This document shows positions 6,456-7,439 of a DNA stretch of 64,000 nucleotides, one piece after another. Within the stretch, counting starts at the first letter, position 1. Every line of letters starts with the position of its first letter. The notes beneath the pieces were generated by a model. The model did no database searches and was not told the origin of the DNA. It saw nothing but the letters and a program-made list of their open reading frames with translations. The position numbers and the translations under genes are program-made. The stretch is from Escherichia coli (GTDB lineage Bacteria > Pseudomonadota > Gammaproteobacteria > Enterobacterales > Enterobacteriaceae), in assembly GCF_003334255.1 (NCBI RefSeq), contig NZ_QOWU01000007.1; one strand, written 5' to 3'.

Positions 6456-6760
6456 TGTGATGAAAGATTAATTTCACCTTAAATCCTGGTGCTGTTAGGA
6501 TGCTGACGTTTTTCGGCTACACCATTCAGATTATGCAAATAAATATCTCTGAATATAATATATTCATAGCACCCATAATTCATCCTGGGCGATAACTAAA
6601 CCATTTTTGAGTAATAAATGAAACAACTGCAACACTCTTATTATTTCTGGAAAACGCCTCGCAAAAACAAAACAACATGCAAAAATCCGCTTTTTTTAAA
6701 TGATTTTCCGGCGTAATTTTCGCACATACATTAATGAGTAATATATGTAAGGTATTGGTA

Positions 6761-6979
6761 ATGGCGATGAATACGGTTTTTCTTCATTTATCAGAAGAGG
6801 CAATTAAACGGCTGAACAAGCTTCGGGGCTGGCGTAAGGTTTCACGATCTGCAATTTTACGCGAAGCGGTAGAGCAATATCTGGAACGTCAGCAATTCCC
6901 GGTGCGTAAAGCAAAGGGAGGCAGGCAAAAGGGGGAGGTAGTTGGTGTTGATGATCAGTGTAAGGAGCATAAGGAATGA
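6761..6979 (+). CDS. yiiE: ribbon-helix-helix (CopG/Arc/MetJ-like) small DNA-binding protein
   Basis: 72-aa reading frame inside ORF-track ORF 6734-6979; RHH-like motif SRSAILREAVEQYL; start choice among 6734/6761/6767 is uncertain. Confidence 0.6.
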   Translation: MAMNTVFLHLSEEAIKRLNKLRGWRKVSRSAILREAVEQYLERQQFPVRKAKGGRQKGEVVGVDDQCKEHKE

Positions 6980-7220
6980 CAAAAATTTTTCATTCTTGAA
7001 TATAAAAAACAGATGCCCTTATTCTGGTATTAATACAAGGCTGTTTTACTTGAACTTATAATAACTGCAACTGTTACATCATATCTGGAAAACGCCTCGC
7101 AAAAATAAAAAATGATGCGTAAATGAGCTTTCTTTAAAGATTCGGCAAGGGTACTTTTCTCTCCATAGATTCAAAAATGATATTGGCGAGATATTTATGA
7201 ACTCTCTGGCAGGTATAGAT

Positions 7221-7439
7221 ATGGGCAGAATTTTACTCGATTTATCGAATGAGGTGATTAAGCAACTTGATGATCTCGAGGTGCAGCGTAATCTTCCTCG
7301 TGCGGACCTATTAAGGGAAGCGGTAGATCAATACCTGATAAATCAATCGCAAACAGCAAGAACCAGTGTTCCTGGCATCTGGCAAGGGTGTGAGGAAGAT
7401 GGTGTCGAATATCAGCGTAAGCTGCGCGAGGAATGGTAA
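7221..7439 (+). CDS. yiiF: ribbon-helix-helix small DNA-binding protein, paralog of yiiE
   Basis: 72-aa frame inside ORF-track ORF 7197-7439; motif [14 protein letters not shown]; roughly 45 percent identical to YiiE over the RHH core. Confidence 0.6.

Follow-up and report, generated by a model that had tools for sequence, protein, structure and literature searches.

The yiiE-yiiF locus

The stretch analyzed here (contig NZ_QOWU01000007.1; hereafter the window) comprises 64,000 nucleotides of K-12-type Escherichia coli chromosome, from which a 1.9-kb query was 100% identical to E. coli G1/2 with its RefSeq annotations. Our subject is a pair of small plus-strand genes, yiiE and yiiF, together with a sequence block that is repeated about 100 nt upstream of each of them. 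The pair lies between fabY (yiiD; 4919-5908) and the minus-strand genes fdhE-fdoIHG, which stand beyond repetitive extragenic palindromic (REP)-type repeats 3' of yiiF. Within the searchable literature the two genes appeared only in listings (H-NS/SlyA targets, an RpoS peak from systematic evolution of ligands by exponential enrichment (SELEX), and tables of uncharacterized transcription factors); yiiE has been reported as H-NS-bound and SlyA-induced (PMC5797941), and the RpoS SELEX peak falls in the yiiD-yiiE spacer, about 630 nt 5' of the block (PMC5493296).

The product of yiiE (6761-6979) is a 72-aa ribbon-helix-helix (RHH) protein that appears to be a solo paralogue of the VapB kind whose C-terminal (toxin-binding) segment has degenerated, and that of yiiF (7197-7439) is an 80-aa RHH protein that appears to be an orphan VapB-type antitoxin with its C-terminal motif intact. 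YiiE and YiiF share 41% identity over 56 aa (E=3e-12), which bears out their description as RHH paralogues in an initial annotation of this DNA. The Pfam family RHH_1 matched YiiE at E=1.6e-11 and YiiF just at E=0.0072; a precomputed PF01402 match on most YiiF orthologues and homology to the CopG-family chain of PDB entry 7BY2 likewise indicate the N-terminal RHH domain of a VapB antitoxin. That annotation had given both proteins 72 aa, which is right for YiiE and not for YiiF as it is annotated, and solved as PDB 2K5J, namely as 80 aa from ATG 7197, a start that carries a GGAGG Shine-Dalgarno sequence and is conserved in other genera. A 72-aa YiiF would begin at the second conserved in-frame ATG, 7221.

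The repeated block matches CRP-S sites

The exact block, TCTGGAAAACGCCTCGCAAAAA, spans 22 bp at 6646-6667 and 7084-7105, which confirms the repeat first placed at 6647-6667 and 7085-7105 and lengthens it by one base; with one mismatch it extends to 27 bp. These were the only two copies in the window even when 3 mismatches were allowed, and 100 shuffles yielded 0 matches. The 100 nt around the block (6622-6721 versus 7060-7159) are 73% identical without gaps, in agreement with the earlier proposal that the duplication included the upstream regions, and the pairwise alignment of the entire modules (6540-6990 versus 6985-7450) that had been called for gave an identity maximum of 0.9 over the block and values of 0.37-0.73 in the coding parts. 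The similarity did not prove to belong to a longer untranslated repeat unrelated to regulation, the contrary outcome that had been envisaged. Elsewhere in E. coli, the yiiE copy reads TGGAT-GCCGTC-TCGCA or has the spacer AACGTC in some lineages, and the islands of other strains hold a third copy, TCTGGAAAGCGCCTCGCAAAT, about 120 nt upstream of a 103-aa open reading frame (ORF)/NadS pair and within unrelated flanks.

Comparison with known regulatory sites revealed that the core of the block, TGGAA-AACGCC-TCGCA, reads on the opposite strand as a perfect instance of TGCGA-N6-TTCCA, the CRP-S motif described for E. coli (Sinha et al. 2009, quoted by Sondberg et al. 2019, PMC6728893), with 10/10 core positions matched at 6648-6663 and 7086-7101 and at no other place in the window. 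CRP-S sites of E. coli are asymmetric, work in either orientation, need both of their unlike halves and depend on AR1 (class I) (PMC6728893). Such low-affinity CRP sites require the competence co-activator Sxy (TfoX), and Sxy dependence in turn calls for asymmetry. The asymmetry is present here, in that one half-site is of the TGCGA type and the other of the TTCCA type, as at the sxy promoter, Psxy. Enterobacterial CRP-S half-sites carry C6 or G6 and never T6, the base found in canonical CRP sites (Cameron & Redfield 2006, PMC1635313), and the block likewise has G6 in its TGGAA half and C6 in its TCGCA half, in keeping with the rule for positions 6 and 17. Numbered as 22-bp CRP sites, we accordingly delimit a predicted plus-strand CRP-S site of yiiE at 6645-6666 (TGGAA 6648-6652, spacer AACGCC, TCGCA 6659-6663, centre 6655/6656), nearly identical to the sxy site, and one of yiiF, its exact repeat, at 7083-7104 (TGGAA 7086-7090, TCGCA 7097-7101, centre 7093/7094), whose orthologous position is invariant in the 18 vapB promoters described below.

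Among the closest known relatives of the block is the CRP-S site of sxy itself (Jaskolska & Gerdes 2015, as described in PMC6728893). The validated K-12 site, TTTCGGAAAGAGCCTCGCAAAT, contains the half-sites TTCCG and TGCGA named in PMC6728893 and agrees with the third island copy, TCTGGAAAGCGCCTCGCAAAT, at 18 of 21 bases, most of the spacer included. Both the sxy site and the yiiE/yiiF block combine unlike TGCGA-type and TTCCA/TTCCG-type half-sites with a 6-nt spacing, have an A/T-rich flank after TCGCA, and stand at an upstream position compatible with class I activation; they differ in the distal half, which is TGGAA (the consensus) at yiiE and yiiF and CGGAA at sxy. A further difference concerns the genes served, since the CRP-S regulon is known for DNA-uptake genes and those after the yiiE and yiiF sites, which are predicted from sequence, are orphan antitoxin genes.

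To place these matches among Sxy-regulon promoters, we searched the 300 nt 5' of each known regulon gene and scored matches to the ten core positions, where the chance of a match per promoter is about one in four at 8/10, about 0.02 at 9/10 and about 5e-4 at 10/10. Only yiiE and yiiF reached 10/10 (TGGAA-AACGCC-TCGCA); sxy (CGGAA-AGAGCC-TCGCA) and chpS (TGGAA-AGCGGC-TCGGA, within TGGAAAGCGGCTCGGA) followed at 9/10, and a second chpS site (TGCGA-GACGAC-TCGCA), higB (TGGAA-TCGCGC-TTCCA), ybaV (CTGAA-GCCGCC-TCGCA) and ppdA (GGGAA-GGCGTC-TCGAA) at 8/10.

The same letters could also be parsed as a sigma-54 (-24/-12) promoter, TGG-N9-TCGCA, with the correct GG-N10-GC spacing and orientation and with a -12 TCGC resembling that of glnAp2, TTGGCACAGATTTCGCT. 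When scored with a position weight matrix built from the 135 chromatin immunoprecipitation sequencing (ChIP-seq) sites of Bonocora et al. 2015 (PMC4591121), however, the block reached 4.8 bits and rank 242 in the window, under every true site (minimum 6.9, median 14.4). Neither yiiE nor yiiF occurs in the searched text and supplements of the ChIP-seq paper or in the texts on RpoN genomic SELEX and ChIP-exo, and no gene for an enhancer-binding protein lies nearby. On the matrix score and the absence from the searched sigma-54 papers we ruled this parsing out as close to refuted.

The matrix recovered two published sites as internal positive controls, the intragenic fdoI site CTGGCGCGAATTCTGCA (IS47) at 9161-9177 on the minus strand and the metF site TTGGCGCGAATATTGCC (IS48) at 60469-60485 on the plus strand, which together fix the offset of the window to U00096.2 at +4,070,553. 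It also picked out CCGGCGTAATTTTCGCA at 6708-6724 (+), which at 12.95 bits ranks 6 in the window and lies within the ChIP-confirmed range; this match, 37 nt 5' of the yiiE ATG, overlaps the predicted -10 TAATTT (see below), and its yiiF counterpart lacks the -12 GC. It is probably coincidental, as yiiE goes unmentioned in the ChIP-seq text and supplements searched.

The toxin partner of yiiF

The survey of neighbours of homologs that had been suggested for a lost toxin partner found one, a gene for a PIN-domain protein of the VapC kind that overlaps yiiF orthologues. YiiF homologues 70-80% identical occur in Citrobacter, Pseudocitrobacter, Salmonella, Enterobacter, Klebsiella and Serratia, and where an orthologue at the yiiF locus overlaps a PIN gene, its identity is 74-79%. 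In Pseudocitrobacter, Citrobacter and S. enterica diarizonae the yiiF orthologue sits in the fabY-fdhE spacer and shares one base with the 124-aa PIN gene (PF01850) that comes after it; the same spacer also houses ParDE, HigBA and RelE-like/helix-turn-helix (HTH) pairs and an alpha/beta-hydrolase gene. The PIN protein is nearest to VapC models in NCBIfam, though under their cut-offs, and matches chain B, 'Ribonuclease VapC', of 7BY2/7BY3 at E=1.8e-66. Chain A of the same entries is the closest PDB relative of YiiF after 2K5J itself (E=3e-29), and YiiF aligns with it end to end, including the W..EEDG.EYQR.LR.EW motif. Of 5,426 complete E. coli genomes, 57 contain, at this same position, a full-length counterpart whose annotation is VapC family toxin; the gene order of E. 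coli 2016C-3878 is yiiE, vapB, vapC, fdhE.

The initial annotation had stated that no toxin-like gene follows either copy, and in the window this is true of an intact gene, the PIN gene being present after orthologues in three genera and in the 57 E. coli genomes, but remnants of vapC persist at 7439-7448 and 7685-7732. Base-level alignment with E. coli 2016C-3878 showed that the plus-strand 5' remnant ATGGGAAAAA (7439-7448, about 3 codons) overlaps the yiiF stop as in intact vapBC, that homology is then lost over 7449-7684, where about 235 bp of unrelated DNA stand in place of about 290 bp of vapC, and that the plus-strand 3' remnant (7685-7732), from which 15 bp are missing internally, preserves the terminal ~16 codons together with the stop TAA (7730-7732). 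This remnant was also picked up by tblastn with four PIN proteins, whose final 23 aa matched at 60-70% identity (E=3e-4, reckoned on the entire window). Within the replacing segment lie REP-type palindromic repeats of bacterial interspersed mosaic elements (BIME) at 7484-7623 (inverted repeats I1 and I6); the segment matches thousands of places in E. coli genomes, and an Rfam scan of 5800-7900 returned just the sub-threshold REP-derived families naRNA4 and ES036, downstream of yiiF. The position of the repeats inside the destroyed gene has the look of REP-associated gene destruction.

The toxin-binding C-terminal motif of YiiF is identical to that of VapB in the vapC-intact strain 2016C-3878. 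At yiiE, the corresponding DNA still aligns with yiiF but shows W->R and Y->D changes and a final W codon turned from TGG to TGA, so that it encodes RQKGEVVGVDDQCKEHKE and ends early. A possible relic of a vapC start, ATGACAAAA, overlaps the yiiE stop at 6976-6984 (+) and may be compared with the vapC start ATGACAAAC (MTN..) of Pseudocitrobacter; it is a weak match of 9 nt only, and a tblastn search turned up no other trace of a PIN gene 3' of yiiE. An intact vapBC lies downstream of yiiE in E. coli 2016C-3878. Judged by homology and synteny, the toxin partner of yiiF is a PIN/VapC protein and yiiF itself an orphan VapB-type antitoxin gene; yiiE appears to be an older solo paralogue. Measured against the VapBC complex of 7BY2/7BY3, an RHH antitoxin with a PIN RNase, the K-12-type locus differs in that only about 3 + 16 vapC codons are left in the window and that yiiE lacks the C-terminal motif.

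Predicted anatomy of the vapB promoters

Alignment of 18 vapB upstream regions from many Enterobacteriaceae revealed the block as an island of total conservation amid unconserved flanks. Counting from the block start, the only other conserved parts were GCTTT(AA) at +43 to +50, a hexamer within GTAnnTTG (+67 to +74) that shows the -10 signature T-A-n-n-T-T at +68 to +73, and, directly before the ATG at +113, TGATATACTGGAGGTATAT, an extended -10 that overlaps both a palindrome ATATAC-N5-GTATAT and the Shine-Dalgarno sequence. If the -10 lies at +68 to +73, transcription would begin near +80 and the CRP-S site would be centred between about -70.5 and -72.5, a class I position (these fall near -61.5, -71.5 and so on), although the signal across families is weak. 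By this offset, the predicted -10 of a distal, CRP-S-dependent class I promoter (P1) would be TAATTT at 6714-6719 (+) for yiiE, with a start near 6726-6728, and TACTTT at 7152-7157 (+) for yiiF, with a start near 7164-7166 and the CRP-S centre at about -71; the RelE-like/NadS operon reads TAAGCT at the same offset.

Such strict conservation could also reflect a small conserved coding sequence or an RNA element. The changes between genera (AGC/AGT, CAA/CAG, AAA/AAG, CTG/TTG) are indeed all synonymous in one frame, LE(S/N)(G/A)SQK. The RelE-like copy of Pseudocitrobacter, however, has an in-frame stop two codons upstream, frame lengths and starts differ everywhere, the yiiF copy lacks an ATG, the flanks are unconserved, and the Rfam scan placed no family over the block. 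We rejected a small ORF or leader peptide, there being no consistent ORF, and consider this whole class of explanation extremely improbable.

The proximal palindrome is nearly invariant in intact vapBC loci and perfect in E. coli 2016C-3878, whereas in K-12-type yiiF it survives as a degenerate relic, TGATATTGGCGAGATATTT (7178-7196, +), of the candidate VapB operator and P2 promoter TGATATACTGGAGGTATAT; the block is unchanged. Erosion of the palindrome with retention of the block is the pattern expected if loss of the toxin made autoregulation, and not the activator site, dispensable. A side observation bears on the two yiiF start codons, in that the GGAGG of the first ATG (7197) sits inside the palindrome, and a purine-rich leader of its own precedes the nearly invariant second start (ATGGGC). 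Transcripts of yiiF/vapB from the proximal promoter would lack the first Shine-Dalgarno sequence, and the two promoters might therefore give 80-aa and 72-aa products.

A probable decayed toxin-antitoxin island

Observed sequence identity, synteny, vapC remnants, conservation and the match to both the published motif and the sxy site make it, in our judgment, highly probable that the block is a CRP-S site of the CRP-Sxy activator and that yiiF and yiiE are antitoxin genes left after destruction of vapC. The window would then contain the decayed end of a toxin-antitoxin (TA) island between fabY and fdhE, with yiiF as the vapB of a VapBC module whose vapC middle was presumably replaced by REP-containing DNA, and with yiiE as a presumed older tandem copy of promoter and antitoxin gene from which the toxin-binding C-terminus has gone. 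Cyclic AMP-CRP together with Sxy would bind TGGAA-N6-TCGCA centred near -71 and activate a weak distal promoter by the class I route, with -10 elements TAATTT (yiiE) and TACTTT (yiiF); yiiE and yiiF would thereby join hicAB, chpSB and higBA in the Sxy regulon and be induced in an Sxy-dependent manner. In intact vapBC, the second, proximal extended -10 with its palindrome ATATAC-N5-GTATAT would be the likely site of VapB autoregulation, decayed in K-12 yiiF. Binding, transcript start and Sxy-dependent induction are predictions that we infer from these sequence features.

Several points weigh against this reading or temper it. The action of CRP or Sxy at yiiE and yiiF is a prediction, as are the assigned -10, -35 and start sites; a consensus sigma-70 scan of the modules found nothing at the assigned promoters, a terminator scan was likewise uninformative, and across 12 independent flank groups TAnnnT was enriched only weakly, at +58 and +67/68. 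By the simple core score, the established CRP-S promoters of hicA, ppdD and hofM had no match of at least 8/10 within 300 nt upstream, and some CRP-S sites must therefore depart from the form TGGAA-N6-TCGCA. No searchable full text ties yiiE or yiiF to Sxy, the gene list of Sinha et al. 2009 lying outside that search. The region has been reported as H-NS-bound and silent (PMC5797941), and the site may thus be unused in K-12; gene conversion, moreover, may explain in part why both K-12 copies are exactly alike.

Control of TA operons by Sxy has precedents, and regulation of yiiE and yiiF would extend what is known, not add a new kind. It is established for hicAB promoter P1 and reported for E. 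coli chpSB, higBA and hokD (PMC11951105), and toxTA of Haemophilus influenzae is a TA operon under Sxy/CRP-S (PMC6957337). The predicted two-tier layout of yiiF/vapB, a distal CRP-S promoter with a proximal palindrome at the start codon that is the likely antitoxin operator, resembles that of hicAB and toxTA; in yiiF/vapB, by contrast, the family is VapBC with the antitoxin gene first, P2 and its operator are deduced from conservation, and in K-12 the toxin is gone and P2 decayed. Both hicAB (Turnbull & Gerdes 2017) and toxTA (PMC6957337) are reported to have a distal P1 under Sxy/CRP-S and a proximal P2 that the antitoxin represses.

Orphan (solo) chromosomal antitoxins have been proposed as anti-addiction modules. 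Like these, yiiE and yiiF have been kept without a cognate toxin, and the toxin-binding end of YiiF is intact and identical to that of the VapC-bearing strain; such a role is putative here. To our knowledge, solo antitoxins retained under a competence-linked activator site have not been described before.

If the reading is correct, two K-12 y-genes of unknown function would gain an identity, as orphan VapB-type antitoxin genes, and a regulator, CRP-Sxy, and the locus would offer a clear worked example of TA decay, with REP-associated removal of the toxin, retention of the antitoxin and the distal activator site, and erosion of the proximal autoregulatory element. Sinha et al. 2009 may already list yiiE and yiiF as CRP-S units, in which case only the VapBC identification and the cross-family survey that follows would be new.

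Distribution of the block across Enterobacterales

A scan of one genome per species with the pattern TYTGGAAARYGSCTCGCARA returned at least 120 stretches, against about 35 expected by chance, a number that fits the scattered non-enterobacterial matches among the matches listed. The remaining listed matches were from Enterobacterales; a genome frequently had two such loci, and the flanking DNA was of many unrelated kinds. That the spacer looks conserved in this survey is built into the search pattern. With offsets given as ORF start relative to block start, and counts of loci among the matches listed, the most frequent arrangement was a VapB gene followed by a PIN gene at +112/113 (at least 24 loci, with the PIN gene in 19-20), after which came RelE-like genes (PF06296) at +133 to +142 (at least 9 loci), CcdA-like genes followed by CcdB-like genes at +96 (at least 7 loci, CcdB-like in 5), and Gp49/HigB-like genes at +116, TfoX/Sxy-like genes of Pantoea at +139 and PTS (phosphotransferase system) IICB genes at about +170 (at least 3 loci each). 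At least 4 further loci carry a RelB/DinJ-RelE pair beside cybC (E. coli) that is divergent from an identical 22-mer. The block stands upstream of at least five unrelated TA families, VapBC, RelE-like/NadS, CcdAB-like, Gp49/HigB-like and RelB/DinJ-RelE, and the TfoX/Sxy-like and PTS IICB genes show that not all block-associated genes are TA modules.

It was the tfoX/sxy case in Pantoea that pointed to CRP-S sites. At Pantoea loci (L037, L050, L082, L092) the block lies 139-142 nt 5' of the TfoX/Sxy-like gene, consistent with sxy autoregulation. Enterobacter and relatives (L042, L049, L053, L072, L128, L130) hold related block copies with one common flank, and at 3 of these loci a 523-aa PTS IICB gene begins about 170 nt downstream. 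Beside cybC (L057, 4720-4739, with homologues L029, L069 and L075), the 22-mer TCTGGAAAACGCCTCGCAAAAA, with the E. coli-type spacer AACGCC, precedes the divergent RelB/DinJ-RelE operon and adjoins tandem GCATTACAT repeats that resemble an antitoxin operator; a 901-nt query spanning this operon was at least 80% covered at one place in 453 of 5,426 E. coli genomes.

These contexts bear directly on the earlier suggestion that the block is a shared regulatory element. The part of it that implied co-regulation of the two genes is supported; the part that made the block an operator of the RHH proteins themselves, bound by YiiE and/or YiiF so as to auto- or cross-repress both genes, is not. An operator would accord with the habit of RHH antitoxins to autoregulate, and in the window the block is common to exactly the two RHH genes. 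On direct reading, however, the block has no dyad and no inverted or direct/tandem repeat substructure of the kind bound by RHH dimers, and the identical motif precedes operons with HTH (NadS), CcdA-like and RelB/DinJ-type antitoxins as well as sxy/tfoX and a PTS gene. The conserved proximal promoter with its palindrome, which comes about 90 nt after the block, is a much better fit for an operator, so that ATATAC-N5-GTATAT by the start codon is, from its sequence and position, the better candidate. Because the block lacks such substructure, recurs at four other unrelated TA families and at sxy/tfoX, and matches the CRP-S consensus exactly, we consider an RHH operator very unlikely.

A broader generalization is, to our minds, doubtful, namely that Sxy/CRP-S control is general among chromosomal type II TA modules of Enterobacterales, that the spacer is the Sxy determinant and that orphan antitoxins are induced for anti-addiction. 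The generality may follow from the almost invariant ~20-nt motif carried by five unrelated families and solo antitoxins, and the conserved spacer (A-R-Y-G-S-C), a segment not read by CRP, could be the feature by which Sxy recognizes DNA, a determinant long looked for. YiiF-like orphan antitoxins, if switched on during DNA uptake, would then neutralize incoming toxin genes. Were CRP-S control to hold at these loci, the list of Sxy-controlled TA modules would grow beyond hicAB, chpSB, higBA and hokD by several families across Enterobacterales, the association of TA modules with the competence regulon, so far without an explanation, would become stronger, and a set of near-identical natural CRP-S sites would be at hand for asking what Sxy recognizes.

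Variability of the island

Gene content between fabY and fdhE varies among E. coli strains, some of which carry, upstream of yiiE, the hydrolase gene, the 103-aa ORF with a NadS-family gene, and small ORFs. One strain (L005, 2201-2383) has lost yiiE by recombination between two 22-27-bp blocks, which left a hybrid upstream region, and another (L003, 2949-3060) has lost yiiF and vapC, its junction joining a point within the block (past ...CGCCTCGC) to the 3' end of vapC through a CGCRAAA microhomology. In E. coli strain 2/0 (L004, 735-2348), two minus-strand genes stand between the RHH modules, one for a 282-aa DUF6708 protein and one for a 246-aa hypothetical protein that found no NCBIfam match, and homology to K-12 returns 25 nt upstream of the yiiF block.

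Such rearrangements raise the question of whether the block is instead a non-regulatory recombination footprint, a cassette boundary or att-like core for TA insertion that gene conversion keeps identical. Homology does switch at the block, with the hydrolase promoter to its left and different TA cassettes to its right, the losses of yiiE between copies and of yiiF-vapC with a junction in the block speak for such a footprint, and the mosaic upstream sequences suggest conversion. Yet no recombinase gene is associated with the arrays and no block marks their downstream end, and single genes outside any cassette (sxy, PTS) have the block too. Microhomology (CGCRAAA) with vapC accounts for the L003 junction, and recombination follows from the mere presence of 22-27-bp repeats and says nothing of their purpose. 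A conserved site within divergent flanks has, moreover, the look of a protein-binding site, and the sequence equals a known site type. We demoted the cassette-junction or att-like reading, the block being a known type of binding site that is also found at non-cassette genes, and regard it as improbable, by a hair less so than an RHH operator; a CRP-S site remains the preferred interpretation.

The K-12 left part of the island differs from that of the long-island strains. Window positions 6268-6384 (+) are, according to RefSeq, an incomplete 'hypothetical protein' pseudogene, and K-12-type 5900-6382 is missing from the long-island strains, whose homology to the window starts at about 6383; the K-12 left part is therefore both different and reduced. 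On one long island, a 73-aa ORF (L002, 1711-1932, +) showed a faint NCBIfam match (E=0.0099) to the N-terminus of a prepilin peptidase-dependent pilin; it is possibly a pilin fragment, which would be curious beside competence-type sites, and is probably noise.

Adjoining the start of the divergent alpha/beta-hydrolase gene is a perfect LexA-box-like palindrome (CTGTATGAATGTACAG or CTGTATGGATATACAG), located at 1479-1494 in L006, present also in L002, L003, L007-L009 and L011, and comparable to L132 1945-1960. It lies about 55 nt upstream of the first CRP-S block of the island, a distance shared by E. coli and Citrobacter. This order recurs between sulA and sxy of K-12, where the sulA SOS box CTGTATGGATGTACAG is followed 34 nt later by the sxy CRP-S site. 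These positions suggest an SOS-regulated hydrolase and a recurrent pairing of SOS boxes with CRP-S sites.

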